The position numbers and the translations under genes are program-made. 64,000 bases of DNA from Alphaproteobacteria bacterium (GTDB lineage Bacteria > Pseudomonadota > Alphaproteobacteria > JANQMY01). This document shows positions 18,531 to 33,562 of this stretch, one piece after another (positions within the stretch are counted from its first letter, which is position 1; each line of letters begins with the position of its first letter). Location: the NCBI GenBank assembly GCA_965227095.1, contig CBDDFL010000001.1, positions 85,539 to 149,538 of the forward strand, in the 5' to 3' direction. The notes beneath the pieces were generated by a model, which was given only the letters and a program-made list of their open reading frames with translations, was not told the DNA's origin and searched no databases.

Positions 18531-20105
18531 ATGACTGAACCGCGTACACGTATACTGGTATTGGGCATTGATTCCGCGGAGCCACGACTTGTGCATGAAA
18601 TGGCGGGTGCGGGGCGTCTGCCCCATGTCGCCTCCTTGCTTAAAGGCGGCCTAACAGGGGCGGTTCAGAACCCTCGCGGTTTCGAATCCGGCACGGTGTG
18701 GCAGAGCTTTCATACGGGCAAAGAACCCGGCGGCCATCCCATGTATGATGGGCTACGCTATTTCAATCCGCAAACCTATGGTTTTTCGTTTCTCGAACAA
18801 TCAGAGGTCGGCGCCGATCTCATCTGGGAACATTTGTCAAAGCACGGCAAACGGTGCGCGGTGATTGACGCGCCTTATTGTCAGATCGGCCAAACCATCA
18901 ATGGCATTCTGGTTGCGGACTATGCGGTGCATGACGCCGCCCTCGGCGACAATGTGATCACCTTTGCAACCGACCCCGCCCCTCTGGCGCAAGAGCTGCT
19001 GGACCTGGTAGGTCCCGACCCCACGGGGGGCATTCAAAGTGACATTCCGCTGGTGGAAACACTGCAAGACCATATCGACTTCCGCGATAAATATTTCGCC
19101 CGCGTCGAGAAAAAGGGGCGCCTCATCAACCACATCCTGCAAAAAGAGCCGTGGGACTATGTAGAGGCCGTGTTTACCGAACCCCACAGTGTGGGGCATC
19201 GGTTGTGGCATGTGGCCAATCCCGACCACGACCAATATCAGCGGCATCTGCATGAGGCCCTGGGAGATCCCATCCGCGATCTTTATGAACTGACCGACAA
19301 GGCGATCGGCGAGGTTCTAGCCCAGTTGGATGACCGTACGCTGGTGATTTTCTACATAAGCCACGGCATGGAAAACCATTACACCGGCGTTGGTCTTCTG
19401 GATGAAGCCTTGGTTCAACTTGAACGTGGCGTGCCGGCCACCGGAGACCGGTCGCTCAAGGAAAAATTGCGCGGCGCGTGGCGGTCGATCCCGTCTGAAA
19501 CCCGGGGGCGCTTGCGTCCCTTCAAGAAGTTTTTCCACGGTGCGCTGTCTCCGCGCGAACAAGATTTCGCGGGCAACCGCCGTGACCGTCGCTTCTTCGA
19601 AGTCTATGCGAATTACAGAACCGGCGGTGTACGGATTAATCTGCAAGGGCGGGAAGCCAATGGATTGGTCGCCCCAGAAGACTATGATGCGCTGCTCACG
19701 GAACTGACAACCGATCTGCTGGCGCTGAAGAATGCGGATACGGGCGACAATTTGGTGGAAGAAGTGCTGCGCCCGCGCGACCTTTACGACGGCGCCTATG
19801 TAGACTATCTGCCTGACCTCTTGGTCTCGTTCGACCGGCGGGCGCCGATCAACCGTATCTCGTCAGATAAAATTGGTCTGATTGAACGCGCCTTTCCACC
19901 CGCCCGGTCCGGCGATCATTCCCGTTACGGACTGTTTGCGGCCACGGGCGCTGGCATCCCGCCCCGGAAACTCAACGCTACCGTCAACGCCGTGGATTTC
20001 TTTCCGACAGTGTGCCAAGCATTGGGTGTGGCAGCCCCAGGCTTCCCGGGAAAACCGATTGAGCATCTGCCCGCCGCCGCCCGCATGCTCGAAGACGCAC
20101 GTTAA
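18531..20105 (+). CDS. Alkaline phosphatase-like / type I phosphodiesterase-nucleotide pyrophosphatase family protein
   Basis: ILVLGIDSAEP...LPHVASLLKGG N-terminus (PF01663-like), ...ARSGDHSRYGLFAATG metal-site region; 524 aa; tandem paralog of the IS-disrupted gene. Confidence 0.75.
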   Translation: MTEPRTRILVLGIDSAEPRLVHEMAGAGRLPHVASLLKGGLTGAVQNPRGFESGTVWQSFHTGKEPGGHPMYDGLRYFNPQTYGFSFLEQSEVGADLIWEHLSKHGKRCAVIDAPYCQIGQTINGILVADYAVHDAALGDNVITFATDPAPLAQELLDLVGPDPTGGIQSDIPLVETLQDHIDFRDKYFARVEKKGRLINHILQKEPWDYVEAVFTEPHSVGHRLWHVANPDHDQYQRHLHEALGDPIRDLYELTDKAIGEVLAQLDDRTLVIFYISHGMENHYTGVGLLDEALVQLERGVPATGDRSLKEKLRGAWRSIPSETRGRLRPFKKFFHGALSPREQDFAGNRRDRRFFEVYANYRTGGVRINLQGREANGLVAPEDYDALLTELTTDLLALKNADTGDNLVEEVLRPRDLYDGAYVDYLPDLLVSFDRRAPINRISSDKIGLIERAFPPARSGDHSRYGLFAATGAGIPPRKLNATVNAVDFFPTVCQALGVAAPGFPGKPIEHLPAAARMLEDAR

Positions 20106-20214
20106 CACCGCGGTAAGCTTTGCCCGCGTTAACGCTAGCGGTTTATTAGGATTAATGCGCCATAGTCGCCCCAGTTTTACTGGTATTTCAAAGTAGTTCT
20201 CAGGCGGGCGTTTC

Positions 20215-21051
20215 ATGAAACCTGGCGTATACAAAGTATCCGATCTTCCGGCAGAGTTGGTCAGCACTCTTGATCTTAAAGGCGATTATGCGCTGTACGA
20301 CAAAGCACGCGGCGGCAGTTACCATTTCTTCGAAGTAGAACTTCTCAAGCGCATTGAAAGCGAACGGCAACTGATTGAAATCATTCGCTCGCCTGTGCAT
20401 GGGCATTTTCTGGTGCTGGATGGCGAGGTGCAAATCGCCAGCGCCGACGAACACGAATATCATGGTGCCTTTGCCCGCGAATCCCTTGCCTTCCTGGAAG
20501 AGCGCAACGCTAAACCCACCTACAAAGCCATGGTGTTCGGCGGCGGCGACGGCTGCCTGGCCCGCGAAATGCTGGATACGGATAAATTTAATTCCATCGA
20601 AATCATCGATTGGGACAAGGATGTGCTGGGCCTTTTCAGCGATGGCGAGATGGCGGATGTGTTTAACACCAAGCGGGTGTTTGCATCCGACACGGTCAAG
20701 GTCTACAGCGAGGACTTTCGGGATTATCAATTCGAAGCCTTGGGCGACAGTGTCGACATCCTTTATTTCGATTTGACCGACGAAGCGGTGGACGACCCCG
20801 CCTGGTCCGGCCAAATGGTCGACCTGCTCAACTACTTCATCGCCGACCAAAAGCAAGAATTGGTTCTGGCGGTGCAACTGGGGTCGCGCTTCTGTCACAC
20901 GCCGACGCAGAATTTTGAGCTGTTGCTCGGCGCGCTGAAAGACAAATTCAGCGATCAGAAAATCAAACTGACCCACAAGGAAATTTGCTTCTACATCCCG
21001 TCCTATTCCACCTATTGGGCGCTGGGATTTGTAGGCATTTCCTACGACTAG
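20215..21051 (+). CDS. Spermidine-synthase-like (polyamine aminopropyltransferase fold) protein
   Basis: FLVLDGEVQ and MVFGGGDGCLAREM motifs correspond to the SpeE substrate and SAM-binding signatures. The antisense ORF 20200-20976 was judged spurious. Confidence 0.6.
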   Translation: MKPGVYKVSDLPAELVSTLDLKGDYALYDKARGGSYHFFEVELLKRIESERQLIEIIRSPVHGHFLVLDGEVQIASADEHEYHGAFARESLAFLEERNAKPTYKAMVFGGGDGCLAREMLDTDKFNSIEIIDWDKDVLGLFSDGEMADVFNTKRVFASDTVKVYSEDFRDYQFEALGDSVDILYFDLTDEAVDDPAWSGQMVDLLNYFIADQKQELVLAVQLGSRFCHTPTQNFELLLGALKDKFSDQKIKLTHKEICFYIPSYSTYWALGFVGISYD

Positions 21052-21072
21052 AGTTCAAGGGGCACGGCGCCC

Positions 21073-21810
21073 CTACACGGACACTTTTTGATCGGCGCCC
21101 GTCTCTTTGGGGAGGGGCGCCATCTTCGTTTCAAGCGCCGAAATCTGGTCCCGAAACCGTCGCGCCGTGTCGTCATCGGCATAGGCCAGAAGATTGCACA
21201 GCCCCGTATGTTCGACGCGGGTCACAAAGTCCGCATCGCTCAACGCCCCCCGCGCCCACAAAATGGCCGTGCCGAACCAGCCCACCGTCAATTGAGAAGC
21301 GAGAATGTGCGGGTCGAAGCGCGCCGCCAGCGCCCCTTGTTCCAAGGCGCGGATCAAGGCGGTTTCCGCAAGTCCGGCGCCAAATTCCATGAACTCCAAA
21401 GGGCGGCTGGGGGAGCCCAAGGGGCGGTCCTTGTCGCCCGCCCACATGGGATGAAAGAGCGCCTTGCGCGCAATGCATTTTTCCGCCGCCACCGTCATGA
21501 TGGTCAGCACCTGCTCGATGGGGTCTTGATCTTCGGGGAGCGCCGTCAGTTCTTCTTCCAGGGTCGAAAAGGCGCGGTCTTCCAGCACGGCGGCGATGGC
21601 TTCCTTGCCGCCGCCATAGAGGTTGTAAAGCGTCTTGACGCTCAGCCCCACTTCCTGGGCCAGCGCCCGCATGGTGAAAGCGCTCAAGGAATCGCGCATG
21701 ATCAACCGCTCCGCCGAATCCAAGATTCGCTGGCGCCTGGCCTCCATATTGAGTGCGCGTTGATCCATCCCGACCACGGTCGATCCCATTGAGTCCCCGA
21801 TCTTTGGCAT
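21073..21810 (-). CDS. TetR-family transcriptional regulator
   Basis: HTH RQRILDSAERLIMRDSLSAFTMRALAQEVGLSVKTLYNLYG; divergent from the CYP153 gene. The true start is probably an internal Met (MDQRAL or MEARRQ). Confidence 0.8.
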   Translation of the reverse strand: MPKIGDSMGSTVVGMDQRALNMEARRQRILDSAERLIMRDSLSAFTMRALAQEVGLSVKTLYNLYGGGKEAIAAVLEDRAFSTLEEELTALPEDQDPIEQVLTIMTVAAEKCIARKALFHPMWAGDKDRPLGSPSRPLEFMEFGAGLAETALIRALEQGALAARFDPHILASQLTVGWFGTAILWARGALSDADFVTRVEHTGLCNLLAYADDDTARRFRDQISALETKMAPLPKETGADQKVSV

Positions 21811-21854
21811 CTAGCAAGTTGGCGCCGCAATCCGCAAGTGCCATTCACATTTTG

Positions 21855-21899
21855 CTTGACTACAACGCCGTTGTAACTTACAACATTGTTGTAGTCAAG
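21855..21899. promoter_or_regulatory. Nested perfect palindrome, likely TetR operator in tetR/CYP153 divergent promoter
   Basis: Outer IR CTTGACTACAAC (21855-21866) / GTTGTAGTCAAG (21888-21899); inner IR GTTGTAA-C-TTACAAC (21870-21884). Confidence 0.6.
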
Positions 21900-21917
21900 A
21901 TTTTCCCGGAGATCTCC

Positions 21918-23192
21918 ATGAGTCAGGCCGCCCTGAAACCGTCCACAACAGACACTTTCGACCCAAACGCGATCGCGCTGGAGGACATCGATCTGACGGA
22001 CGCGAATTACTATTTCAACCAACAGCATTGGGCCCTGTTCGAACGCCTGCGCAATGAAGATCCGGTGCATTTCTATGACCATGAAGAATTTGGCCGCATC
22101 TGGTCGGTGACCCGCTATGCGGACATCATGGCGGTGGACACCAACCACAAAACGTTCTCCTCCGAACCGTCCATCTTTATCGTCGATGGGCCCACGGGCG
22201 ACGATGAAAACTTCGACCCGGAAACCTTCATCGCCATGGACCCGCCAAAACACGACATTCAGCGCAAAGCGGTGACCCCGGCCGTTTCGCCCTCTGCGTT
22301 GATGGATTTGGAACCCCTGATCCGCGAGCGTGTGTGCAAGGTGCTCGACGGCTTGCCGGTGGGCGAAACCTTCAACTGGGTGGACCGGGTGTCGATCGAA
22401 ATCACCACCCAAATGTTGGCCACCCTGTTCGATTTCCCCTTCGAAGACCGCTACAAGCTGACCTTCTGGTCAGACCTCACAACCGCCAACGAAGAAGTGT
22501 TGGAAGAAATGGGGCTCACGGAAGAAGAACGCCGCGGACACCTGTATGAATGCTTGGAAACTTTCGGCAAGCTTTACGCCGAACGCGCGGCTCTTCCGCC
22601 TGCGAATGATTTCATCTCGCTGATGGCTCATAACGAGCATATGAAAAGCCTGGACCCCATGAACTTGCTCGGCAATCTGATGCTGCTGATCGTGGGCGGC
22701 AACGACACCACGCGGAATTCCATGTCCGGCGGCGTGCTGGCCCTGCATAACCATCCGGACCAATTCGCGAAGCTGAAGGCCGACCCGTCGGTCATCCCGA
22801 ACATGGTGTCGGAAATCATTCGTTGGCAGACGCCGCTGGCCTATATGCGCCGCACTGCCACGGAAGATGTGGAACTGGGCGGCAAGACCATCAAAAAAGG
22901 CGACCGGGTATTGATGTGGTACATCTCCGGCAACCGCGACGAGCGGGACATTGACCGCCCCAATGAATTCCTGATCGACCGGGAAGGCGCCCGCCGCCAC
23001 CTATCCTTTGGCTTCGGCATTCACCGCTGCATGGGCAACCGTGTGGGCGAAATGCAGGTGCGCATTCTGTGGGAAGAAATTCTCAACCGCTTCGACCGGG
23101 TGGAAGTGGTGGGCACGCCCGTGCGCACTTTCTCGAACTTCGTGATGGGCTTCACCGACCTACCTGTCGTCGTGCACCCGAAGACGAGCTAG
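21918..23192 (+). CDS. Cytochrome P450, CYP153 family (alkane/alkyl omega-hydroxylase-like)
   Basis: CYP153 signatures LLIVGGNDTTRNSMSGG, EIIRWQTPLAYMRRTA, heme loop FGFGIHRCMGNRVGE. Confidence 0.9.
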   Translation: MSQAALKPSTTDTFDPNAIALEDIDLTDANYYFNQQHWALFERLRNEDPVHFYDHEEFGRIWSVTRYADIMAVDTNHKTFSSEPSIFIVDGPTGDDENFDPETFIAMDPPKHDIQRKAVTPAVSPSALMDLEPLIRERVCKVLDGLPVGETFNWVDRVSIEITTQMLATLFDFPFEDRYKLTFWSDLTTANEEVLEEMGLTEEERRGHLYECLETFGKLYAERAALPPANDFISLMAHNEHMKSLDPMNLLGNLMLLIVGGNDTTRNSMSGGVLALHNHPDQFAKLKADPSVIPNMVSEIIRWQTPLAYMRRTATEDVELGGKTIKKGDRVLMWYISGNRDERDIDRPNEFLIDREGARRHLSFGFGIHRCMGNRVGEMQVRILWEEILNRFDRVEVVGTPVRTFSNFVMGFTDLPVVVHPKTS

Positions 23193-23204
23193 GCGATCAG
23201 CCTT

Positions 23205-23232
23205 GACGGACGGGGTTTGCAACCCCGTTTAC
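23205..23232. repeat. REP-like palindrome (degenerate copy) immediately after CYP153 stop
   Basis: gacggacggggtttgcaaccccgtttac (compare consensus TTGACGGACGGGGTTACAAACCCCGTCCGTCAA). Confidence 0.5.
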
Positions 23233-23238
23233 CTCTGT

Positions 23239-23637
23239 TTATTTCTCACCAGGTTCACCTTGCGCGGTGGAGAGGAGTCTGACCAACAGTCCAAGCAAGG
23301 TCAAAGAGATTAGACCGTAGAGGCCGACGATTGACCAGCCATTTTCATTCGCCCCGGCATACTGTCCCTGGATCGCCATGACCGTGCTCAAAGACGTTGC
23401 GATCAGAAGGGATGACACAAACCCCATACGCAGGTTTCTATCCTCAGTTCGACGGGCGAACCATGCGCACATGCCCATGCCGATGAGTGTCGAGCCCCAG
23501 AACCGATAGATGACGATCCCCATGGCGCTCAATTGAACATCGTAATTTGCCAACATATCTTCGGGGAACAGAACACATAGAGCGCCAGAGACAATGGTTA
23601 CTACGGCCAAAATTGAAAGTACCAATTTATACGTCAC
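23239..23637 (-). CDS. hypothetical small membrane protein (4 predicted TM)
   Basis: 132-aa hydrophobic ORF; no family recognised. Confidence 0.5.
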   Translation of the reverse strand: MTYKLVLSILAVVTIVSGALCVLFPEDMLANYDVQLSAMGIVIYRFWGSTLIGMGMCAWFARRTEDRNLRMGFVSSLLIATSLSTVMAIQGQYAGANENGWSIVGLYGLISLTLLGLLVRLLSTAQGEPGEK

Positions 23638-23676
23638 GGCCTTTTCCTTTTTTTTAGGGTCTAATGATGTCGAGTG

Positions 23677-24984
23677 TTAGGCTGACAAGCTCAGCCCCAC
23701 TTGCTTTTTGACCTGGGCCAAAGCAGCGCGATAGGTGTCGATATGCACATAATTTGCATGTCGTTGAGAGTCGACATAACGGTGGCCAGCCGTGAGGTCG
23801 GGCTTATGCGTCTTTTTCATTTTTGAAAGCTTTTCTTTCAAGGGCGATTCGGCATTGGCCGCGGCATCTGCCGCGATTAACTCAGCCATCTGATCAAAAT
23901 TTGCGTATGCCGCCGAGGAGAATTCCACAAACCCAAGAAACGCCAAATTGCTGTGCTTTCTGGAAAACATTCCCAAATAAAGATCGGGCCGCCCCTTCTT
24001 TTTGTCTACGTCGGCTGGGTCCAGGAACGGGATGTCGTGTTTGTATCCGGTCGCCGCTATGATGAGATCCACCTGCTCTCTAGACCCGTCAACAAATTCA
24101 ACACAATGGCCATCCAATCTCGCAATGTCCGGTTTAACGACACAATCGCCGTGCCCCACATAGTGCAGAATCTGGGTGTTCATCAACGGATGAGATTGAA
24201 ACAGTTTGTGGTCCGGCTTCGGAAATCCGTATCTCGCAACATTGCCATTCATCAAGTTCAGGATCAACGTGATTGCCGGCGTGGAAATCCAGTCCGGAAG
24301 CTTGGCCCCTTTCCTCGCAAACACATCCGTCGGCTGTCCCATGATGTATTTCGGCACAAAATGATAACCCCTTCGTACGCTGATGAATGTCTGCTTCGCT
24401 GCAAATGCCGCATCACACGCAATGTCTGCGCCGGAATTCCCAGCGCCAACGATCAGCACACGTTTTCCAGCAAACTCCGACGGCGATCGATATGTGATTG
24501 AATGTCGAATTTCTCCGTCAAAATTTCCGGGCCATGAAACTAAGTTAGGTTCCCAAGTCACTCCATTGGCGCAGATCAAATAACGGGCGGTAAGGGTTTC
24601 ACCCTCTTTCGTTTCTAACTTCCATTTCCCCTGACGGTCACGCTTGGCATGGGTAATATGGGTGTTCAGTCTTACGTGTTTGCGTAAATCAAACGTGTCG
24701 GCGAACGACCGGATATAGTCGAGAACAAGTGTGTGATTTGGGTAGTCGGGGTAACCATCGGGCATTGGAAATCCGGGAATTCCCGACAATGACCGAGACG
24801 AAATAAAGTGGGCGGAGTCGTACATCGGCGATCCAGGTGCATCAATGTCCCAAACACCTCCTACGTCAGACCCACGATCAATTAACTGAAACCTTGTGTC
24901 ATATGACTGGAGGTGTTTTGCCAGAATCAATCCGGCAGGGCCCGCACCAACAACCAAAACATCCCATTCTTTCGTCTCATTCAT
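23677..24984 (-). CDS. Flavin-containing monooxygenase (FMO-like, two dinucleotide-binding motifs)
   Basis: VLVVGAGPAGL (FAD) and LIVGAGNSGADIA (NADPH) GxGxxG motifs, FMO-like FxGxxxHS region. Confidence 0.85.
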   Translation of the reverse strand: MNETKEWDVLVVGAGPAGLILAKHLQSYDTRFQLIDRGSDVGGVWDIDAPGSPMYDSAHFISSRSLSGIPGFPMPDGYPDYPNHTLVLDYIRSFADTFDLRKHVRLNTHITHAKRDRQGKWKLETKEGETLTARYLICANGVTWEPNLVSWPGNFDGEIRHSITYRSPSEFAGKRVLIVGAGNSGADIACDAAFAAKQTFISVRRGYHFVPKYIMGQPTDVFARKGAKLPDWISTPAITLILNLMNGNVARYGFPKPDHKLFQSHPLMNTQILHYVGHGDCVVKPDIARLDGHCVEFVDGSREQVDLIIAATGYKHDIPFLDPADVDKKKGRPDLYLGMFSRKHSNLAFLGFVEFSSAAYANFDQMAELIAADAAANAESPLKEKLSKMKKTHKPDLTAGHRYVDSQRHANYVHIDTYRAALAQVKKQVGLSLSA

Positions 24985-25004
24985 TCAAATACCCCCCCTC
25001 TTTC

Positions 25005-25048
25005 GTGACTAGTAGTCACGTTACAAAATACGACTATTAGTCACGTTT
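25005..25048. promoter_or_regulatory. Candidate operator in FMO promoter: palindrome GTGACTAGTAGTCAC plus direct repeat of CTAnTAGTCACGTT
   Basis: gtgactagtagtcac at 25005-25019; ctagtagtcacgtt (25008-25021) and ctattagtcacgtt (25034-25047), 20-60 bp upstream of the FMO start. Confidence 0.45.
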
Positions 25049-25230
25049 TGAGTTTTGTCAAGCGGAACTCCGCATCGGAAACACGCAGACGACAGAAAAG
25101 TTTCGCTGCTCTTTCACCGGATGAGGGAGCCGACCGTTCTCCAAAAGGAAAGTTGGGGTGTTCAAATTAAAGCACGCGGTCGAAACAATGTGCCGCGAGA
25201 ATGTCGGTTGCGCCGTGCTAAGCAGCATTA

Positions 25231-25309
25231 CTCAGCACTCAGCACTCAGCACTCAGCACTCAGCACTCAGCACTCAGCACTCAGCACTCAGCACTCAGCA
25301 CTCAGCACT
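25231..25309. repeat. Heptanucleotide microsatellite (CTCAGCA)x11.3, perfect
   Basis: Direct reading of ctcagca repeated 11 times plus ct, ending at the tetR stop codon (25309-25311); lies in the 324-bp FMO upstream region. Confidence 0.95.
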
Positions 25310-25932
25310 TAAGATACCGATCGATTTTCCAAAATATGCAAGCAGGTTAATCCACAGAAGGCATCAATCGTTCTTTTTGCCTCCGCTGGAGACAGGACTG
25401 CTACGAGACGAATTGCGGCATCTGCCAATTCCAGCATCAACAAGACGCGCTCCGCAATCGATTTGCGGGACCCGTGAACACCTCGGCTCGCCAAAAACCC
25501 AGCGACGATTTTTGCGTTCTTTCGACTGTCTTCCAAATCCAGACGCGAGAGCTCCGGATCTTCACGAATAACGGCTCTCAACTGCACACGAAACGGTTCT
25601 CTTTGATGCCGTTCAAGATATTCCCGAAAGCCAATGCGCAATATTTCCTCCGGCGATATATCCGGCCCAATCGTTGCGTGGATCAGATCAGCCCCATCCT
25701 TATAGACCCGTTTGATAAGCGCATGGACGATTGCCGGTTTTCCCGGGAAATACCGATAGACTGCCGCTTTCGATATCCCGGCCCGTTTCGCGATTTCGGT
25801 AATCGTGATCTTGTCGATACTATTGGACGACAACAACTCCTCCAGCGCCCCCAGAATCGATTCAACACCGGTCTTGCTTCGGGTTTGCTCGGGTTCACGT
25901 CTGAGCTCTAAGTCTGTGTTAGACATTCTCAT
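25309..25932 (-). CDS. TetR-family transcriptional regulator
   Basis: HTH ITITEIAKRAGISKAAVYRYFPGKPAIV; 207 aa. Confidence 0.85.
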   Translation of the reverse strand: MRMSNTDLELRREPEQTRSKTGVESILGALEELLSSNSIDKITITEIAKRAGISKAAVYRYFPGKPAIVHALIKRVYKDGADLIHATIGPDISPEEILRIGFREYLERHQREPFRVQLRAVIREDPELSRLDLEDSRKNAKIVAGFLASRGVHGSRKSIAERVLLMLELADAAIRLVAVLSPAEAKRTIDAFCGLTCLHILENRSVS

Positions 25933-26091
25933 TCAATTCCTTATGTCGGTCGCGCCGGAGAAGCTGACATCGTGTTTTGTAATCCTACCCTCGAGAAGCT
26001 CGACATGCACCGTCGCTGATGGAACCGAATAGGAAATGCCACACGAACAGAGCAACAAGGCCATAACGACGCTGGCAATGAGTCTTGGCAT
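25933..26091 (-). CDS. possible small lipoprotein (52 aa), not in supplied ORF track
   Basis: Manual translation MPRLIASVVMALLLCSCGISYSVPSATVHVELLEGRITKHDVSFSGATDIRN; signal-peptide-like with Cys; stop abuts the tetR start codon. Confidence 0.25.
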   Translation of the reverse strand: MPRLIASVVMALLLCSCGISYSVPSATVHVELLEGRITKHDVSFSGATDIRN

Positions 26092-26133
26092 TTTCTAACC
26101 CCCAATTCGGAAAATGGGTCTAGTTTCTCTATT

Positions 26134-26170
26134 GATGGGCGGGGTTACAAACCCCGTCGGTCGCCCGCCT
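26134..26170. repeat. REP element copy 2
   Basis: gatgggcggggttacaaaccccgtcggtcgcccgcc; palindromic core GGGGTTACAAACCCC. Confidence 0.7.
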
Positions 26171-26179
26171 TAAAGCGTC

Positions 26180-26956
26180 TTAGCGCGGCGACCGCCCATA
26201 GACGAGGCCGAGGCCTTGTGTCTTGTATCCTAACAATACCAACAATTCGTCCGACGCGGTTTCGATCACTTCCTTGTCGAGTGACAGAAACCAGTTTTCC
26301 TGCGTTCGGTAAATCGGCCTCGTGTACCAGCCGAACAACGCCGCGCGCGGATGTTGGGAACGGTTGCTGCCGGTGCGGTGGCGCACGCGGCTTTCGAACA
26401 CCATCAGCGTTCCCGCCGGTGCGATCACGGGAATCGCTTTTGCGGGAAGCTCGGTTTCGTCCGCATCGCCGGGCAACACATGGCTGTGTGGCACCACTTC
26501 GGTTGCCCCATTATCCGCCGTGAAATCGTCCAGCAGCACACCCACATTCATGCCTTGCGGGGCCGCCGGCCATGGCGTGGGCACGAAAAGCTGATCGGCA
26601 TGTAACATGCCGCCGTCACTGCCTGGTTCGGCGATATTGGCGGAGATATTACCGAGGAGCGCCGGCCAGCCGATCACCTCGCGTAACAGGTCGAGCACGA
26701 TCGGCAATTGGACGATGTCGCGAAACACCGCATCGCGATTGAGAATGTTCCAAACACGGACATTTTTATCGCCATAATCCAGGCCGAACATATCGGCTTT
26801 TCGGCCCAGACGCCGGTCCTCGTCCACCGCCGCATAGGTCGCGGCGCGCGCCGTTTCCAGTTGCGCGGCCGACAGCTGTCCACAGATCAACGCCAATCCG
26901 TGCTCGCGAATATGGTCCTTGGCATCGGCAGCGTTATCAACGACGGGAGGGAGCAT
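26180..26956 (-). CDS. Phytanoyl-CoA dioxygenase (PhyH) family Fe(II)/2OG oxygenase
   Basis: HADQ...H...R pattern (GGMLHADQLF, TEVVPHSHV, RHRTGSNRS), 258 aa. Confidence 0.8.
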   Translation of the reverse strand: MLPPVVDNAADAKDHIREHGLALICGQLSAAQLETARAATYAAVDEDRRLGRKADMFGLDYGDKNVRVWNILNRDAVFRDIVQLPIVLDLLREVIGWPALLGNISANIAEPGSDGGMLHADQLFVPTPWPAAPQGMNVGVLLDDFTADNGATEVVPHSHVLPGDADETELPAKAIPVIAPAGTLMVFESRVRHRTGSNRSQHPRAALFGWYTRPIYRTQENWFLSLDKEVIETASDELLVLLGYKTQGLGLVYGRSPR

Positions 26957-27030
26957 GGTTACGTCCAGATTTGTGCAGCGGTTGTGACGATCTCATAGTA
27001 TGACACAACCAATTGACATACACCTCCCTA

Positions 27031-27064
27031 TTGACGGTCGGGGTTACAAACCCCGTCCATCAAC
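27031..27064. repeat. REP element copy 3
   Basis: ttgacggtcggggttacaaaccccgtccatcaa. Confidence 0.8.
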
Positions 27065-27077
27065 TGGGAACCAATCC

Positions 27078-27620
27078 TTAGCTTCTACCGTCGGGATCAC
27101 TTTCGCCGCCATCCTTCCAATTCTGTTGAAGGTCTGTCCACAGTTTGGACTGCTGATCAGGCGAGTCGAGACGGGATTGAAGATAAGTTCGCGGGCTGGG
27201 GGGAACGATATGGGTGTTTTCTGTTTGGGTCCACCATTCCGGAATTGACCGAATGGTAACAAGAAGAGATTGCATGATCACTTCAAACGATTCCTCATCC
27301 AACAGGCCCTTTTCGTACAATTGCAACGCGTCATGCGCATTTCCCAAATAGCGCCACATGAACATGTCGAACGACGAGCTGTCCTGCTGGTCCATTGTTG
27401 CGTATCCATTTACCGCCGCCAGCATGATGCGACGCAATTCGGCGTTTTTCGCAACATCCCAAGAGTTGCCGTGAAAATTGCCCATAACGGACCGTGCGCT
27501 TTCGATGCGATAGTTGCGATTTGACTGGCGGATCTGAATCGCGAGGTAAATGAGCGATAAGATGACGCCCACTGCCGCCAAAAAATCTGAAATCGCGCTA
27601 ATGGCTGACCAGTTCATCAT
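27078..27620 (-). CDS. hypothetical membrane-anchored protein (paralog of 27843-28364)
   Basis: N-terminal TM ...VGVILSLIYLAIQIRQSNRNYRIESARSV resembles ...AAILGSLIFVGVQIRQNTLATRRQSLDGV of the neighbour. Confidence 0.55.
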   Translation of the reverse strand: MMNWSAISAISDFLAAVGVILSLIYLAIQIRQSNRNYRIESARSVMGNFHGNSWDVAKNAELRRIMLAAVNGYATMDQQDSSSFDMFMWRYLGNAHDALQLYEKGLLDEESFEVIMQSLLVTIRSIPEWWTQTENTHIVPPSPRTYLQSRLDSPDQQSKLWTDLQQNWKDGGESDPDGRS

Positions 27621-27683
27621 CTTTCCTCTCGTTCACATCAGGGATTTTTAGTTGATTTTCCAAAGGATGTCTTCTCTACATTC

Positions 27684-27729
27684 TCTCGACGGACGGGGGG
27701 ACGGGGTTACAAACTCCGTCCGTCAACGG
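27684..27729. repeat. REP element copy 4
   Basis: ctctcgacggacggggggacggggttacaaactccgtccgtcaacgg. Confidence 0.8.
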
Positions 27730-27842
27730 AAACTGTGATGCAACCAATGTCACTTCTCTCATCGGCCTGACAATGACATTCTTTGATCAGACAGATAATG
27801 TCGCTCGTCTGCAAAACACCTCTTTTATGCGGGGAGAAGGTC

Positions 27843-28364
27843 ATGTCGCTCGAGACCATTTACTATATCGGCCAAACGATTGCCGTTGCGGCGATTCTAG
27901 GTTCGCTCATATTTGTTGGCGTTCAAATTCGCCAGAATACGCTTGCGACCAGAAGACAATCTCTAGACGGCGTGATTGACCGAATTGTTCGGTGGCAGTC
28001 AAGGCTAACCAGCACGCCGACTCATGTGGATAGCTGGGTCAAAGGGCTGCAGAACTTTGACAGTCTTCCCGTTGAAGAAAAAATCCATTTCAATGCCCTC
28101 ATCATAGAAATTCTGGTAACTCTCGAGGCGGGACGAGAGGCCGGTAAGACGGGCGATATTAAGCCTGAAACCATTGAGGCGATGGACGGCATGATCGTCC
28201 AACTCTTCCGAAACGCCGGCGTAAGGGAATATTGGCGCCAAGCAAATTACGCGGCGGATTTTATGGCCTACGTCGATAAAATTACAGAGAAGGTGACAGC
28301 GATCCCCAATAGTGACCCCGGGTCCTTGCCGTTTTATGTACCGCCGGAAGAGGCAACTCAATGA
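27843..28364 (+). CDS. hypothetical membrane-anchored protein (paralog of 27078-27620)
   Basis: GGAGAAGG SD before the ATG at 27843; the same N-terminal TM-IQIRQ architecture as the divergent neighbour. Confidence 0.55.
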   Translation: MSLETIYYIGQTIAVAAILGSLIFVGVQIRQNTLATRRQSLDGVIDRIVRWQSRLTSTPTHVDSWVKGLQNFDSLPVEEKIHFNALIIEILVTLEAGREAGKTGDIKPETIEAMDGMIVQLFRNAGVREYWRQANYAADFMAYVDKITEKVTAIPNSDPGSLPFYVPPEEATQ

Positions 28365-28519
28365 AATGCGATGCAGTCTGGTCTGCTCCCTTCGACATTG
28401 CCTTTGGACTGTGATGACCGGATCAAGTATTGCAGCGTTTGGTTTTTTTGAAAGAGATCTAAGGTTATCCGGCCGTTTATGAACATCATAACAACGTCCA
28501 CGTCATAAAAATTCTTCAC

Positions 28520-28557
28520 TCTCGACAGACGGGTTTTGTAACCCCGTCCGCAGGTTC
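28520..28557. repeat. REP element copy 5 (inverted relative to copy 6; flanks RAYT start)
   Basis: ctctcgacagacgggttttgtaaccccgtccgcaggttc. Confidence 0.8.
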
Positions 28558-28559
28558 AT

Positions 28560-29111
28560 ATGATCCGCCTATTAGATCGGAGAACGTGGCCTATGCCAAT
28601 CGTGCGTATCAAACCGTTTGCAAAAGATGGTGTCTATTTCGTGACGCCGACGGTTTGGAATTGGTACTACCTGTTCGATCGGCACAATCGGTGGCAGATC
28701 ATCGCGGACAGTCTGCGGTATTGCCAAGATCACAAATCTCTCAAGATCTACGCTTACGTCTTCATGCTGAACCATCTGCATTTGATCATTCAGGCGGACG
28801 ATGCCGAAAACGTTTTGCGGGATTTTAAGCGGCACACCTCAAAAGCGCTCAAAGAGAATATTCGCGCAACGGAACCAAATGTCCTGACATTATTCGAAAC
28901 CACTGATAGCACCTGGCGTCTTTGGAAAGCAGATAACCAACCACAGCTGATTGAAACGGAAAAGTTCTTTCGCCAGAAGCTCGATTACATTCACGCCAAC
29001 CCCGTACGCAAAGACGACGGGTCACAAGCCGAACACTGGAAATGGTCATCCGCTAATCCGGATAGCCCTCTAAAAATTGAACCGTTATCCTTATTGACGG
29101 GACAGCAATGA
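28560..29111 (+). CDS. REP-associated tyrosine transposase (RAYT, IS200/IS605-like Y1 HUH)
   Basis: HUH motif MLNHLHLIIQ and catalytic Tyr region LDYIHANPVRK; 183 aa; flanked by inverted REPs. Confidence 0.85.
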   Translation: MIRLLDRRTWPMPIVRIKPFAKDGVYFVTPTVWNWYYLFDRHNRWQIIADSLRYCQDHKSLKIYAYVFMLNHLHLIIQADDAENVLRDFKRHTSKALKENIRATEPNVLTLFETTDSTWRLWKADNQPQLIETEKFFRQKLDYIHANPVRKDDGSQAEHWKWSSANPDSPLKIEPLSLLTGQQ

Positions 29112-29149
29112 ACCTGCGGACGGGGTTACAAACCCCGTCCGTCAATGGC
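29111..29149. repeat. REP element copy 6 (flanks RAYT stop)
   Basis: gaacctgcggacggggttacaaaccccgtccgtcaatggc; the outer arm gaacctgcgg is the inverse of ccgcaggttc at copy 5. Confidence 0.8.
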
Positions 29150-29187
29150 ATAGGCAGCGTTGTCAACGAGAGGCGGCAGCACGTTTA
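29150..29187 (-). pseudogene. 12-codon remnant of a second PhyH-like gene start fused to REP copy 6
   Basis: The rc reads GTG-LPPLVDNAAYA..., compared with the intact PhyH N-terminus MLPPVVDNAADA; about 80% nt identity over about 100 bp to 26921-27030, including upstream sequence. Confidence 0.45.
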
Positions 29188-29418
29188 CGTCCGTATTTGT
29201 TTGGGCGGCTGAAGACGCTTCTCAGTATGGCATAGACATGATGCGTGCTTATCCCGCTCTCTACGCGGGAATAGGCAACATTAGCGAACGAATCACTAAC
29301 CTGGCAGCCTAATTAAGTATAGCAGGTGCCAATTTGGTGGGAAACCAAATGGATCGCACTTGCCCTCCATCGGTGCTTTGTTATTCTGGGACAATCTTAA
29401 CGATAATGGAGGAAGCTC

Positions 29419-29847
29419 GTGTCTACACCGACAGACGGTAGTTTTGACGCCCTAAATCTAGACGCTGTCTTAAACACAGCTGTTGATCAAGCCTCTGGAA
29501 TAATCAGCAGTGTCAAAAATCCTTCGTGGGATAAACTATCGCCGGTAAAGCAGTTCCCCGGCAAAATTTCGAAAAATGTCATCCCAATAGATTTTGAAGA
29601 ATATCGGATGCAGATTGTCACAAAAGTTGAACCCGGCACTCTTGTCGACACACATAAGCATGTGGAATCCGTATTCCGATATGTCCTGGATGGCGACCTT
29701 ACAATAAATGGTCTGGCACACGGACCAGGTGATTGGGTACTTGTCCCTGGAAACACCCCATATCGAGTAACAACAAACGGCGGATACACAGTTCTAGCTT
29801 CTTACGGAGCCAAATGCGGATCCCCACATGACCGCGTCGTTAAGTAA
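29419..29847 (+). CDS. cupin-domain protein
   Basis: ThkHvesvFryVLdGdLti...GpGdwvlvPgn pattern of small cupins; located in a low-GC islet. Confidence 0.55.
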   Translation: MSTPTDGSFDALNLDAVLNTAVDQASGIISSVKNPSWDKLSPVKQFPGKISKNVIPIDFEEYRMQIVTKVEPGTLVDTHKHVESVFRYVLDGDLTINGLAHGPGDWVLVPGNTPYRVTTNGGYTVLASYGAKCGSPHDRVVK

Positions 29848-29926
29848 GACATTGAAACATCAGCACAGAACCTTTGCGGACGAGATATCAAACTGTCGAT
29901 AGATAATCTATGTGGGGTTTCGCTGA

Positions 29927-30616
29927 ATGCCTCTCACCATGACTATATTTCCAAAATTAAATGAGAAGGTACTAATACGGTGGATCGAGACATATTGCGA
30001 GCTCCATGATGTTTCCCATTGTCGTCCAAAAGTTTTCGCCGAATCCGATTGGGAAACCGATATTGATATTTTTGCAGATCAGAACAGTTGGGTGCGCGTG
30101 GAATGGCCTCCGTTATTCGGTATAAACACGGTCCCAGCTTCAGAGTATTTTTCACGAGCGCTTGATTCTGTCGTCGTTTCCTCGGAATTTCTTGATGACC
30201 ACGGATGGACCTATGTGATTCTGGATCGAGGCGTGATCAAGGACAAGTTTGTAAATTCACGTTTCAGATATAACCTTACCGAGGAGGAGGCAAAAGATTA
30301 CGTCGGGAATGCAGAGATTTTGGCTAAACACTTCAACATCCCTACACAGAATATCATTCCGTATTTGCGGCACATTGAAAGCTATGGAATATGGGATGAG
30401 CTAAAAGTCTTGTTGGGCTTAAAAATGAGACCCAAACCAATTGGCAAAGTTTTTTTGGATGACCGCTATCAATTGGATGACGAGCGTGTTTTTTTTGATT
30501 TTTGGCGCCGACTTGGTTTTAATCTTTCTTACGATGGTGCACCTGCAGGAACTGCTCGAATCAAGATAAAAAAAGGCTTTCACGACAAGTTCCCCAAAAA
30601 TCAAATAAGTTTCTAG
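29927..30616 (+). CDS. hypothetical protein (low-GC islet)
   Basis: 229-aa ORF, about 40% GC versus about 60% surroundings; no family recognised. Confidence 0.5.
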   Translation: MPLTMTIFPKLNEKVLIRWIETYCELHDVSHCRPKVFAESDWETDIDIFADQNSWVRVEWPPLFGINTVPASEYFSRALDSVVVSSEFLDDHGWTYVILDRGVIKDKFVNSRFRYNLTEEEAKDYVGNAEILAKHFNIPTQNIIPYLRHIESYGIWDELKVLLGLKMRPKPIGKVFLDDRYQLDDERVFFDFWRRLGFNLSYDGAPAGTARIKIKKGFHDKFPKNQISF

Positions 30617-30647
30617 CGACCTCCACGTTATCACAGCAAACTGGCCC

Positions 30648-31310
30648 CTACTCCACCCGCTCGAAATCCTTGAACAGCAGCACATAGTCTTCCGAGATGG
30701 CGCGGCGCAGGGTTGAGCCTTCGCGGCAGATGACGGCACGGGTAAGCAGTGGCGGCAGGTCCGCGAACACGCGTTCGAAATGGTGTTCGAACACGAACTT
30801 GTCGAAACGCATGAATAGGGTCGGTTCGATTTTTTCATCCGTACGGATACTATATCGGGTAAGGCCGCCTAGTGGACCTAAACCAAGTTCCGCCTGCACG
30901 TTTTCAGCCACCTTGGACTGCCGCGGCGCCTGAAACCGATAGACCGTTTCGACAGGTGACATGGAGATCAATTCCGCTCCCGCGATGGACTTGCGGTAGT
31001 CCGCCGCCACCAAGCCGCCTGGCATGGCCTCCAACCGTTTGGCGTGGGCCAGTTTACCGCGCGCCGTCGCGTCGAGTGCATTCGGGTCGCCCTTGAGCAC
31101 CGTCCACCGCCCGCTTGAGGCGTTGTAGCGTTCGACGATTTCGGGGCCGTCCGCCCATTGAAACACCAAGGTGAACGATAGGCGCAGATCCGCATGGGCT
31201 TCGGCCTCTCGCAGCGCTTGCTCCACCGGATCGGGCAAGGTGCTGGCCCCTGCGGGCACCGCACCCAATAACGCCCCTATGAGGGCGAGAATTTTGACCA
31301 ATGACCCCAT
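30648..31310 (-). CDS. hypothetical secreted protein
   Basis: Signal peptide MGSLVKILALIGALLGAVPAGAST; 220 aa. Confidence 0.55.
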   Translation of the reverse strand: MGSLVKILALIGALLGAVPAGASTLPDPVEQALREAEAHADLRLSFTLVFQWADGPEIVERYNASSGRWTVLKGDPNALDATARGKLAHAKRLEAMPGGLVAADYRKSIAGAELISMSPVETVYRFQAPRQSKVAENVQAELGLGPLGGLTRYSIRTDEKIEPTLFMRFDKFVFEHHFERVFADLPPLLTRAVICREGSTLRRAISEDYVLLFKDFERVE

Positions 31311-32130
31311 GGGCGTTTTCTGCTATCCTCTTTGGTGAGGGAGGCATCTGACAGCAGAGGCCTCACATGAGAGAGCGAACAAACCGCACCGAGAGTACCA
31401 GAGGGTCCACCAGGGCCCTTTTGTTTTGTGTGGTTAATCGGGGTCACTTTTCCGTTAGGTGGATGACCCCCTGTGTGCCCGTGAATTGGGTTGGCGGCAC
31501 GCCAAATCAGGGATGTCGTCCCAGCCCTGAGCTGGGACCCATAGCCCCTAATTTTACGGGTTTGGCCGAGGCCTTTGTGACGGGAAACGAGGCGTCGTCG
31601 CACCTTGTGTGCTGCGGCGTATGGATCCCAAGCTCGCGGACAGGGTCCGCTCCTTGGGATGACAGCAAGAGGGTGCGGCCGTCCGGTTCCCCGACCGCCA
31701 CCTCCGCGATAACAAGAGCCAAAACGAAACACCGCCGTCATTGCGAGCACAGTGTCTATCCGCTTGGCCCGTTCTGCCCCCACTCGAAGCCACCCGCCAG
31801 GGTACCGTATCCGGGTGCTTGGGAGGGGGAGTGGGTGGCATGGTGATCAAACATTGGATGAACCCCATGCGCCCATCTTCTATGGGCTGCGCCACCCGAC
31901 TCTCTTCTCCACGCCATTGCCTGTCGTGTTCCGGCAATCCAGGGGCCATCTGCTCCGAACAAGCTGCTCTGGATCCCAGGGACAAGCCTTGGGATGACGA
32001 CGGCAGTAGGCCAATCCCTATTGTTTTGTTTTACCGAACAATGTGTTTCGAATTATCCGAATTGTTTTCGAACCATCGCGCCCGCATATTTCCCCCAGAC
32101 GCAATCGAAACCCTTTTGGAGATACGGGCC

Positions 32131-32589
32131 ATGACACAGAATTCCCTCATCTTGCCGGTGTTTGAGCCGCTCTATGACGGCCTTACCAAATATACGGACA
32201 CCGCCGTGCGCGTGGCCGCCGGCTTGTTCCTGGTACCCCACGGCGCACAGAAACTGTTCGGCTGGTTCGGCGGTTACGGACCTGCCGCTACAGGTCAATT
32301 CTTCGAACAGCAATTGGGCTTTTCTAACGGCTTGCTCATGGCCGTGGCCGCGGGCTCCGTCGAATTCTTCGGCGGCATGTTGCTGGCCCTGGGCCTGCTC
32401 ACCCGGCCCGCCGCGGCAGCAGCCTCGGTTCTGCTGTTGGTGGCGCTGACCATGCATGTGAGCAACGGCTTCTTCTGGACAGAGGGCGGCTACGAATACC
32501 CCCTTCTCTGGCTGATCGTGACACTTACCTTTGTTGTTAAAGGCGGCGGCGCCTATTCGCTGGACCGCATGATTGGAAGGGAATTTTAA
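32131..32589 (+). CDS. DoxX-family membrane protein (YqjF-like)
   Basis: DoxX hydrophobic pattern ...AVRVAAGLFLVPHGAQKLFGWFGG...; start set at the internal ATG 32131 (the ORF extends upstream through implausible sequence). Confidence 0.8.
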   Translation: MTQNSLILPVFEPLYDGLTKYTDTAVRVAAGLFLVPHGAQKLFGWFGGYGPAATGQFFEQQLGFSNGLLMAVAAGSVEFFGGMLLALGLLTRPAAAAASVLLLVALTMHVSNGFFWTEGGYEYPLLWLIVTLTFVVKGGGAYSLDRMIGREF

Positions 32590-32590
32590 G

Positions 32591-33562
32591 ATGGGACTGC
32601 TTATCGACGGCGCTTGGAAAGACCAGTGGTACGACACCGGAAAAACCAAAGGCGAATTTGTGCGCCAAGAGGCCAAATTCCGTAATTGGATCACGGCGGA
32701 TGGGTCACCGGGCCCGTCCGGCACGGGCGGATATAAGGCGGAAGCAAACCGCTACCATCTTTATGTCTCACTGGCCTGCCCCTGGGCACACCGGACCGTG
32801 ATCTTCCGTAAGCTGAAGGGCTTGGAAGACATGATCGGCCTGACCATCGTGCACCCCCATATGCTGGAAAACGGCTGGGAGCTGCGCGACGACAACGGCA
32901 ACAGTGTGGATCCGTTGCACGGCCACCGGTTCATGCACCAGGTTTACACCTCTGTGGTGCCGGACATGACCGGACGCGTGACGGTGCCGGTTCTGTGGGA
33001 TACCCAGACCAACACGATCGTGAGCAATGAATCGTCGGAAATCATCCGCATGTTCAACTCCGCCTTCAATCACTTAACCGGCAATAGGGATGATTATTAC
33101 CCCGCTGATTTGCAAGATGAGATCGATGCGCTGAACGAACGTGTCTATCACACGGTGAACAATGGAGTGTATCGCGCGGGCTTTGCCACCACCCAGGATG
33201 CCTATGAAACAGCGTTCGCCGATTTGTTCGACAGTCTGGATTGGCTGGACGAACGCGTGAGCCAACAGCGCTATTTGTTTGGCGGCCGATTGACCGAAGC
33301 CGATTGGCGCTTGTTCACCACTTTGATCCGGTTTGATGCGGTCTATCACGGCCATTTCAAAACCAACAAGAAGCGGATCGAGGATTACGAACACCTGTCC
33401 GCCTATCTGCGGGATTTGTACCAGCACCCCGGCGTCAAGGAGACCGTGGATTTCTGGCACATCAAAGAACATTATTATGTCAGTCAGCGGACGATTAACC
33501 CCACCCAAGTGGTGCCCGCCGGCCCCGAATTGGACTATGACCGGCCGCACGGCCGGGCCTAA
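32591..33562 (+). CDS. Glutathionyl-hydroquinone reductase (Xi-class GST, YqjG/ECM4-like)
   Basis: Active-site CPWAHR motif, YHLYVSLACPWAHRTVI; conserved pairing with the upstream doxX as in E. coli yqjF-yqjG. Confidence 0.85.
   Translation: MGLLIDGAWKDQWYDTGKTKGEFVRQEAKFRNWITADGSPGPSGTGGYKAEANRYHLYVSLACPWAHRTVIFRKLKGLEDMIGLTIVHPHMLENGWELRDDNGNSVDPLHGHRFMHQVYTSVVPDMTGRVTVPVLWDTQTNTIVSNESSEIIRMFNSAFNHLTGNRDDYYPADLQDEIDALNERVYHTVNNGVYRAGFATTQDAYETAFADLFDSLDWLDERVSQQRYLFGGRLTEADWRLFTTLIRFDAVYHGHFKTNKKRIEDYEHLSAYLRDLYQHPGVKETVDFWHIKEHYYVSQRTINPTQVVPAGPELDYDRPHGRA

Follow-up and report, generated by a model that had tools for sequence, protein, structure and literature searches.

A REP-associated tyrosine transposase gene set between inverted copies of a REP hairpin without the canonical GTAG foot

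Introduction

Among the described systems that come closest to the locus treated here is the REPtron of Escherichia coli, in which the gene for a REP-associated tyrosine transposase (RAYT), TnpAREP (RayT/YafM; Bertels group 2, or Quentin subclass 2.2; PDB 4ER8), lies between inverted copies of a repeated extragenic palindrome (REP) and is apparently present as a single, immobile copy. Canonical REPs carry a 5' GT[AG]G foot (PMC8266576; PMC6006769), and residues Q95, E100, H101 and R104 of E. coli TnpAREP are reported to contact GTAG (PMC6006769). The group 3 RAYTs of Pseudomonas, Stenotrophomonas and Marinomonas are found with REPINs and with short, perfectly palindromic REPs that have conserved loop positions. 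The RAYTs of subclass 2.6 (equivalent to group 5) have NH[LIV]H / WQ / YIH[QN]NP signatures, a spacing of about 82 residues, and atypical REPs lacking GT[AG]G (PMC6006769); those listed in Table S1 of the same study have GCT[AG] feet, stems of 9-10 bp and TGT/ACA loops, as in Zobellia GCTA-GCGCTCGTT-TGT-AACGAGTGC (PMC6006769). Here we describe a RAYT gene and its flanking hairpins in a stretch of 64,000 nucleotides (nt) from Alphaproteobacteria bacterium (lineage JANQMY01; assembly GCA_965227095.1, contig CBDDFL010000001.1, positions 85,539 to 149,538 of the forward strand), the whole of which is referred to below as the window.

We read the locus as a REPtron, that is, a RAYT (TnpAREP) gene that has its cognate REP hairpin in inverted copies on both sides and a cluster of more REPs upstream, and put the probability of this reading at roughly 85%. 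What carries it is the gene itself with its catalytic motifs and fold, the repeats on either side, a layout conserved among homologues, the covariation of the hairpin stems, and purifying selection on the protein.

A RAYT gene bracketed by inverted REPs

The listing of open reading frames (ORFs) for the window gives a plus-strand frame at 28560-29111, corresponding to 183 residues, and this frame is enclosed by a 36-nt inverted repeat whose arms (28524-28559 and 29108-29143) are 94% complementary. The claim of a first-pass annotation of this DNA, that the RAYT gene is bracketed by inverted REP copies, is thereby borne out. A 34-nt REP pattern allowing up to three mismatches has exactly two matches in the window, one on each side of the gene, and none in 100 shuffles. 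As had also been claimed, the stop codon overlaps the downstream copy, the TGA at 29109-29111 lying inside the downstream arm (ATGAACCTGCGG...), and the arm sequences ccgcaggttc and gaacctgcgg are exact reverse complements; they had been labelled the outer arms, but are in fact the gene-proximal, inner ones. The elements of the unit are as follows.

28515..28561, plus strand: REP copy 5, upstream of the RAYT gene; loop TGT (plus strand), outer foot GACA, core 28528-28548, inner tail CGCAGGTTCAT; covariance-model E 1.8e-6
28560..28592, plus strand: 11-codon in-frame upstream extension of the RAYT ORF, probably an untranslated leader; contains GGAGAA at 28579-28584
28593..29111, plus strand: RAYT / TnpAREP gene, 172 residues, coordinates including the stop codon; identified by family model, alignment and fold
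29106..29152, minus strand: REP copy 6, downstream of the RAYT gene; loop ACA (plus strand), inner tail ATGAACCTGCG overlapping the stop codon, perfect 11-bp hairpin at 29117-29141, outer foot CGTC; covariance-model E 1.2e-13

Two close relatives are used for comparison throughout. L001 is a 10.5-kb metagenome contig, syntenic with window positions 19952-32899 at about 5% nucleotide divergence, with a RAYT 93% identical to that of the window and with REP copies 1, 2, 5 and 6 at matching places. L002 encodes a RAYT that is 75% identical, in the same REP-gene-REP layout and in an unrelated gene context.

The start of the gene requires correction. It had been placed 2 nt after REP copy 5, and this describes the ORF well enough, in that GGTTC ends at 28557 and the inner side of the inverted repeat runs straight into the ATG at 28560 (GTTCAT followed directly by ATG). 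The real start is the ATG at 28593, 35 nt after the arm, because the identical protein in the database has 172 residues, as opposed to the 183 of the ORF, because all 40 aligned homologues (164-172 residues) begin with MP.. at the position of Met12 (that is, ATG 28593), and because in L002 an in-frame TAG lies upstream of the equivalent ATG. The 11-codon extension is absent from every aligned homologue, and on these comparisons ATG 28560 is probably not used as a start.

The RAYT protein

The identification of the protein as a RAYT, proposed in the first-pass annotation, is upheld by family models and predicted structure alike. The NCBIfam equivalog NF047646 (REP_Tyr_transpos) gives 85.5 bits, above its cut-off of 80, over residues 21-163 of the 183-residue ORF, whereas the IS200 models stay below theirs (NF033573, 13.9 vs 55; Pfam Y1_Tnp, 19.5 vs 23), and no Pfam domain other than this sub-threshold Y1_Tnp is found in the protein. 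In an alignment of 41 RAYT sequences (the window protein and 40 homologues, alignment A1), N60, H61 and H63 of the motif LNHLH are invariant, as are Y132, P137 and V138, and N136 is at least 90% conserved. The HUH motif, H61-L62-H63, is encoded at 28773-28781 and the predicted catalytic Tyr132 at 28986-28988; the HUH and tyrosine motifs that had been picked out from the sequence thus do fall in invariant columns. The family consensus around the tyrosine is YIHNNPV, and the window protein has YIHANPV.

When the A1 profile is compared with the PDB, the sole match is 4ER8, E. coli TnpAREP (E 2.6e-6), whose HUH and tyrosine motifs align with those of the family. The AlphaFold model of the protein (predicted local distance difference test, pLDDT, 86.6; predicted template-modelling score, pTM, 0.83) likewise has 4ER8 as its top Foldseek match, with E 8e-8 and template-modelling (TM) scores of 0.63/0.66 over 164 columns; the transposases of IS608, ISDra2 and IS200 rank behind it, at TM about 0.45-0.49.

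The ratio of nonsynonymous to synonymous substitution rates (dN/dS) between the window RAYT and its 93%-identical orthologue at the same locus in L001 is 0.18, which indicates that the gene is maintained by purifying selection. A tblastn search finds one RAYT copy in the window. The 90%-identity cluster of the protein contains a single member, from a 3.18-Mb contig that supplies none of the 119 further homologues in the best 120 of 819 matches; among plasmids, only nine relatives were found, all distant and none more than 39% identical. We take the gene to be chromosomal, probably single-copy and of the domesticated type.

The REP hairpins of the window

Pattern search, fuzzy search and an unfiltered covariance model agree on exactly six REP copies in the 64 kb, all of them between ORFs and all within 23.2-29.15 kb. 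Their cores start at 23209, 26138, 27037, 27700, 28528 and 29119, in keeping with the earlier numbering of the flanking REPs as copies 5 and 6. The next-best covariance-model match has E 0.25; weak matches at 42.4 kb (E at least 0.25, with no repeats there) were dismissed as noise. The four copies that do not flank the gene all lie within the 5.4 kb upstream of it.

23196..23242 (core 23209), plus strand: REP copy 1, between a convergent P450 gene and a DUF8292-like ORF; covariance-model E 1.1e-9; kept at the same site in L001
26127..26169 (core 26138), minus strand: REP copy 2, between TetR-family and PhyH genes
27024..27070 (core 27037), minus strand: REP copy 3, palindromic with a foot at both ends ('double-foot'), ATTGACG-hairpin-CATCAA; lies at the left boundary of the segment found in the window and not in L001
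27687..27733 (core 27700), minus strand: REP copy 4, between two divergent small ORFs; preceded by a partial duplicate, GACGGACGGGGG; covariance-model E 1.3e-6

The core of the REP is 21 nt long, GACGGGGTT-NNN-AACCCCGTC, and extends to 33 nt with the feet. Copies 2-4 have the foot on both sides, which makes them symmetric (double-foot) palindromes, (A)TTGACG-hairpin-CGTCAA(T). In the flanking copies the foot is found on the outer side only, the inner side being occupied by the tail (CGCAGGTTCAT in copy 5, ATGAACCTGCG in copy 6), and copy 6 is inverted relative to copy 5. Folded as single-stranded DNA, copy 6 forms a perfect hairpin of -14.5 kcal/mol (z -5.5). No two copies in the window are identical. 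The copy upstream of the gene is damaged in both close lineages, and differently so: a stem G has become T in the window (28528-28548), and an apex A has become G in L001 (7008-7028). The downstream flanking REP is perfect in the window, in L001 and in L002.

A sigma-70-like match, TTGTAA-17 nt-TATGAT at 28536-28564, has its -35 element in the loop region of the upstream REP and its -10 element at the GTTCATATGAT junction; such matches are within chance, three being found in the region against 1.5 expected. Neither a T-run nor an intrinsic-terminator-like site was found. A comparison of the whole window with Rfam gave no match, and a literature search found no mention of the hairpin sequence.

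Conserved layout and covariation at homologue loci

When metagenome contigs were scanned at the protein level, 343 RAYT relatives came up, of which 80 loci were kept; together with the window, L001 and L002 these make 83 loci, 80 of which have 116 nt of downstream sequence. A downstream hairpin (9-10 of 10 pairs formed, a 3-nt loop, at most 110 nt from the stop codon) is present at 52 of the 80, as compared with 14 of 4000 shuffles (0.35%) and none of 80 in-gene controls of the same length. Where both flanks could be assessed, the hairpins are inverted with the tail motif facing the gene in 34 of 38 loci.

In a gap-free alignment of 77 distinct flanking hairpins (alignment A2), the positions that are fixed or nearly so are loop positions 2 and 3 (C and A), the apex T and A, the basal G and CC, and a GC two bases past the stem. 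The apex GTT-(A/G)CA-AAC is kept while the stems differ between lineages by compensatory changes, the intervening stem taking such forms as GGACGGGGTT, GGTCGGGGTT, GGTTCAAGTT, GGTTCAGGTT, GGAACTGGTT, GGGCGCGGTT and AGAGCAATTT. Changes on both sides of the stem are seen in nine of the ten pairs (191 cells), and the stem covariation score of 0.626, against 0.188 in shuffled alignments, collapses when the partners are slid out of register. The distance between RAYT proteins also tracks the distance between their stems (Mantel rho 0.64; 0 of 2000 permutations as high). Conserved layout, hairpin covariation and co-divergence with the protein together support a cognate, co-inherited pair of REP and RAYT; with the four further extragenic copies nearby, they also sustain the earlier reading of the locus as a cognate REP-RAYT-REP unit.

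The hairpin family in other genomes

An exact-pattern scan with CGGGGTTNNNAACCCCGTC, covering one genome per species, gave at least 120 matching blocks; we estimate that chance alone would give about 280 matches in all 596 Gb if base composition were uniform. Among the matches listed are many genomes of Methylococcales, Desulfonema magnum, a metagenome-assembled genome (MAG) of Desulfobacterales and several MAGs of Alphaproteobacteria, as well as Poribacteria, Thiomargarita, Thioploca, Microcoleus and others. The consensus over 163 hairpins, AAACGTT-nn-G-[core]-C-n-G-C, shows 70-95% agreement at these positions, and this shared flank indicates that most of the listed matches are real members of the family.

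A RAYT homologue accompanies the hairpins in none of the 120 matching blocks listed, and the hairpins in these blocks are dispersed copies. The 21-nt core is seen many times in distant hosts (L003, L036, L055, L071, L079, L112 (Desulfonema magnum), and many Methylococcales among L004-L122), often as doublets spaced by about 58-62 nt whose inner motifs are of the AACGTT type. Adjacent hairpins in these genomes form 35 pairs, and 28 of the pairs are doublets with the feet outward and the tails inward, at start-to-start distances of 57-117 nt, mostly 57-71. Such doublets are REPIN-like, and have the same configuration as the REP pair around the RAYT gene, the gene standing in place of a spacer of roughly 20 nt; they thus look like gene-less versions of the REP-RAYT-REP unit.

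Comparison with described RAYT and transposase classes

To assign the RAYT to a group, as the first-pass annotation had proposed, we relied on the motif and REP tables of Quentin et al. 2018 (PMC6006769), so that the placement is one by motifs and not by a tree. The family signature is NH[LI]H / WK / YIHNNP, with a length of 165-172 residues and 71 residues between HuH and Y. This rules out groups 2 and 3 and brings the protein nearest to subclass 2.6 (group 5), with an incomplete fit.

The likeness to E. coli TnpAREP is that of an HUH Y1 nuclease with a Y-x3-NP motif, and this protein is both the best structural match and the only sequence match in the PDB. Identity between the two is no more than about 20% (E 0.038 when the single sequence is used), and in the window RAYT the HUH motif, which aligns with the E. 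coli HMH, is preceded by N rather than by E/D, with about 15 extra residues between the HUH strand and the W strand. At the positions of E. coli Q95, E100, H101 and R104 the window protein has K, P, Q and E, by hand count from the pairwise alignment. The REPs differ as well: like canonical REPs, the window family is a repeated extragenic palindrome with a length in the 20-50 nt range, but it is a perfect palindrome of 10-11 bp with a 3-nt loop and, unlike the E. coli REP, has neither bulge nor GTAG. Group 2, or subclass 2.2, with its DHLH and YIHYNP motifs and long bulged REP, was thus rejected for a protein with NHLH and YIHANP and a perfectly palindromic REP.

With the group 3 RAYTs the family shares short, perfect-palindrome REPs and conserved loop positions; its relatives also have inverted doublets (REPINs) of about 60 nt, and the YIHANP of the window protein resembles YI[VI]ANP. 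Group 3 (subclass 2.5; DH[LF]H / WQ / YI[VI]ANP, about 151 residues, short GTAG-footed REP) was nonetheless rejected, given an invariant N60, WK, YIHNNP, a length of 165-172 residues and the lack of GTAG. The window family has instead a conserved 3' tail, AACGTT / GAAC-N-TG, and a GCnG/GACG foot. The GT[AG]G foot is absent throughout, being replaced by GACG/GACA in the window REPs and GCnG in those of the relatives, where, in the inverted reading, G at +23 is found in 92% and C at +24 in 95%.

The fit with subclass 2.6 is better, as regards the HUH and tyrosine signatures and the REPs without GT[AG]G. It breaks down at WK in place of WQ, at a spacing of 71 residues against a median of 82, at a length of 165-172 against 179, and in the hosts, which are mostly Proteobacteria here and Bacteroidetes in subclass 2.6. 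A plasmid-encoded protein of Bernardetia (Bacteroidota), 37% identical to the window RAYT (E 2e-36) and flanked by TGT and ACA hairpins, resembles 2.6 in its WQ, YIHHNP and 84-residue HuH-Y spacing; its HUH is SHIH, not NH[LIV]H. On these motifs, the window RAYT would be placed next to subclass 2.6 / group 5, possibly as a sister clade unsampled by those surveys.

Two further classes were compared. The IS200/IS605 transposases (the TnpA proteins of IS608 and ISDra2) share the HUH Y1 fold and hairpin substrates, and differ in having Y-x3-Q where the window RAYT has Y-x3-N, and in being multicopy elements whose LE/RE hairpins are direct, not inverted copies of one hairpin. The TIRYTs of subclass 2.1, of about 238 residues with a C-terminal helix-turn-helix (HTH) domain and terminal inverted repeats (TIRs) of the form GGGG[AT][CG]A[CG], were rejected for a protein of 172 residues in which no HTH domain was found.

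Proposed mechanism and alternative explanations

The window RAYT is an HUH single-tyrosine nuclease that, by analogy with E. coli TnpAREP, would bind the REP folded as a hairpin in single-stranded DNA. What it would recognise is the invariant apex, GTT-TGY-AAC and the 3-nt loop, together with the flanking motifs, namely a 5' foot (GACG here, GCnG in the relatives) and a 3' tail, AAC-N-T-G/T. It would then cut nearby through Tyr132, with a metal held by H61 and H63, and rejoin the strands, an activity that could copy or move REPs and REP doublets, as opposed to the RAYT gene itself. The gene would be expected to stay in place, since one flanking REP lies on each strand. Binding, the site of cleavage, present-day activity and the mobilisation of REPs by this RAYT are all put forward on the same analogy.

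Several points weigh against the REPtron reading. The cleavage site and the roles of foot and tail are extrapolated from the E. coli, Stenotrophomonas and Marinomonas enzymes (PMC8266576). The figure of 96.8% paired stem positions in A2 is partly obtained by construction, the hairpins having been selected for pairing, unlike the diversity of compensated stems. Copy 5, with one stem mismatch, is a weak hairpin (-5.7 kcal/mol, z -1.4). The unrelated context of the RAYT unit in L002 means that it may occasionally have moved or been rearranged. An unfiltered covariance-model search finds no REP in the other 58 kb of the window; if evenly spread, the family would number at most roughly 165 REPs in the 3.18 Mb, and there could be very few. 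Each of copies 1-5, moreover, has its own private substitution, copy 6 alone being perfect, and there is no sign of recent REP replication, so the system may be quiescent.

The last two of these points are also what would be expected of a decaying relic, in which the REP family is no longer mobilised, the RAYT is kept for some other reason or has not yet been lost, and the hairpins are passive palindromes serving, for example, as transcript-end or recombination sites; the location of REPs at the edges of a 1.56-kb insertion/deletion difference with L001 would fit this as well. We nonetheless consider such a relic unlikely, as the RAYT is intact with all its catalytic residues and a dN/dS of 0.18, and as a flip of the loop at an orthologous REP, described below, indicates that point mutation is not the only way in which the repeats still change. 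More improbable still is that the REP-gene-REP unit is an autonomous insertion sequence, whether of the IS200/IS605 type or a self-copying, TIR-bounded TIRYT, with the other hairpins as solo ends or as elements like miniature inverted-repeat transposable elements. The 36-nt inverted repeats at its termini, the resemblance of the doublets in other genomes to an internally deleted unit, and the different context of the L002 gene, with a duplicated 5' gene fragment, can be cited in favor of such an origin. IS200/IS605 ends are hairpins on the same strand that differ from each other, whereas both ends here are one hairpin on opposite strands. The 64 kb hold one copy, and L001 has the orthologue at the same locus although its nucleotide sequence has diverged by about 5%; the tyrosine motif is the class 2 Y-x3-N and not the Y-x3-Q of IS200, whose models score below their cut-offs; a C-terminal HTH of the TIRYT or subclass 2.1 type is missing from a protein of 172 residues, as against about 238; and plasmids are nearly free of RAYT homologues.

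Least credible of all is the notion that the hairpins are ordinary terminators or regulatory palindromes whose placement around the RAYT gene is coincidental. The downstream hairpin does come directly after the stop codon, and the promoter-like match TTGTAA-17-TATGAT does overlap the upstream one, but that match is within chance, and the same architecture recurs at homologues on dozens of unrelated contigs with compensatory changes in the stems. The conservation of the layout across homologue loci, together with the absence of a T-run or any terminator-like site, excludes the terminator explanation, and the REPtron remains the reading that we prefer.

Close relatives and the variable segment

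At the orthologous REP copy 2 the loop is ACA in the window (26138-26158) and TGT in L001 (6150-6170), within flanks that are colinear and 95% identical; the center of this palindrome has been inverted or replaced in one of the two lineages. Immediately upstream of the RAYT unit, the window and L001 differ by the following segment.

26967..28523, no strand assigned: segment of 1.56 kb present in the window and absent from the syntenic L001, with REP copies 3 and 5 at its edges

At the corresponding site L001 has one hybrid hairpin, flanked on the left as copy 3 is and on the right as copy 5 is, and this fits deletion or insertion of the segment via recombination at the REPs. The segment carries two small, membrane-anchored ORFs, 27078-27620 (minus strand) and 27843-28364 (plus strand), which are weakly related to each other (E 6e-5, with a shared N-terminal anchor) and have no Pfam match. 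A homologue of the ORF at 27078-27620, P0126 (58% identical), lies in a classical integron cassette array (L205, 1-10545) of about 20 co-oriented small genes with attC sites (CATAAC...GTTATG), where several ORFs repeat one 5' start sequence, suggesting paralogues. Another homologue is found beside an IS91 transposase gene (L204). The idea that the segment ORFs are cassettes linked to the RAYT was dropped, as no link was found and REPs are absent from both L204 and L205.

In L002, a duplicated 5' fragment of the RAYT gene lies just upstream of the RAYT (9815-9946; 38 codons, 79% identical) and is cut off by a REP, with a further REP at 9747. This truncated fragment recalls subclass 2.4, for which insertions of REPs into tnpAREP genes have been reported. 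In the window, G+C is 0.48-0.54 across the REP/RAYT cluster (24001-30000) and 0.55-0.65 elsewhere, which fits a variable and possibly acquired stretch. Near the start of the window, ARAGORN calls a permuted tmRNA at 1800-2301 with the tag AGPDEVRGSGPNQNCALSAP; in view of long overlapping ORFs, an atypical tag end and the lack of an Rfam tmRNA match, this call is probably a false positive.

Taken together, these features allow a more far-reaching interpretation, which we offer tentatively and regard as less likely to be right than wrong. The RAYT clade might stand outside the published schemes of groups 1-5 and subclasses 2.1-2.8, as a short sister of 2.6 with a REP grammar of its own (GCnG foot, 10-bp stem, invariant GTT-TGY-AAC apex, AACGTT-type tail). 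In the present lineage its REPs would have collapsed to single double-foot palindromes that cluster at the RAYT, flip their loops, and bound a difference in gene content whose gene family is found elsewhere as integron cassettes. The core GACGGGGTT-NNN-AACCCCGTC is nearly unchanged across Alpha- and Gammaproteobacteria, Desulfobacterota, Poribacteria and others, with RAYTs that are only about 55% identical. If the interpretation were true, a core so nearly constant would imply either an unusually strong protein-DNA constraint or the transfer of whole RAYT/REP systems between phyla, and either option would run counter to the picture of strictly vertical, lineage-specific REPIN populations.

Implications

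The REP-RAYT-REP arrangement is already known, and the locus is a real and ordinary instance of it that leaves the current understanding of REP/RAYT systems unchanged. What goes beyond the first-pass annotation is the corrected start codon, a REP that lacks the canonical GTAG at its foot, and the wide spread of this REP family across phyla, so that it is not specific to the source genome. For annotation, the gene should start at 28593 and be named REP-associated tyrosine transposase, with the six hairpins as its REP family. Nearly all mechanistic work on RAYTs concerns the GTAG-footed REPs of groups 2 and 3. The locus and its roughly 80 relatives make a clean comparative data set for the GTAG-less class, one that separates the fixed positions of the hairpin (the apex, the loop and the GC of the foot) from those that co-vary freely, and thereby predicts what the enzyme reads.

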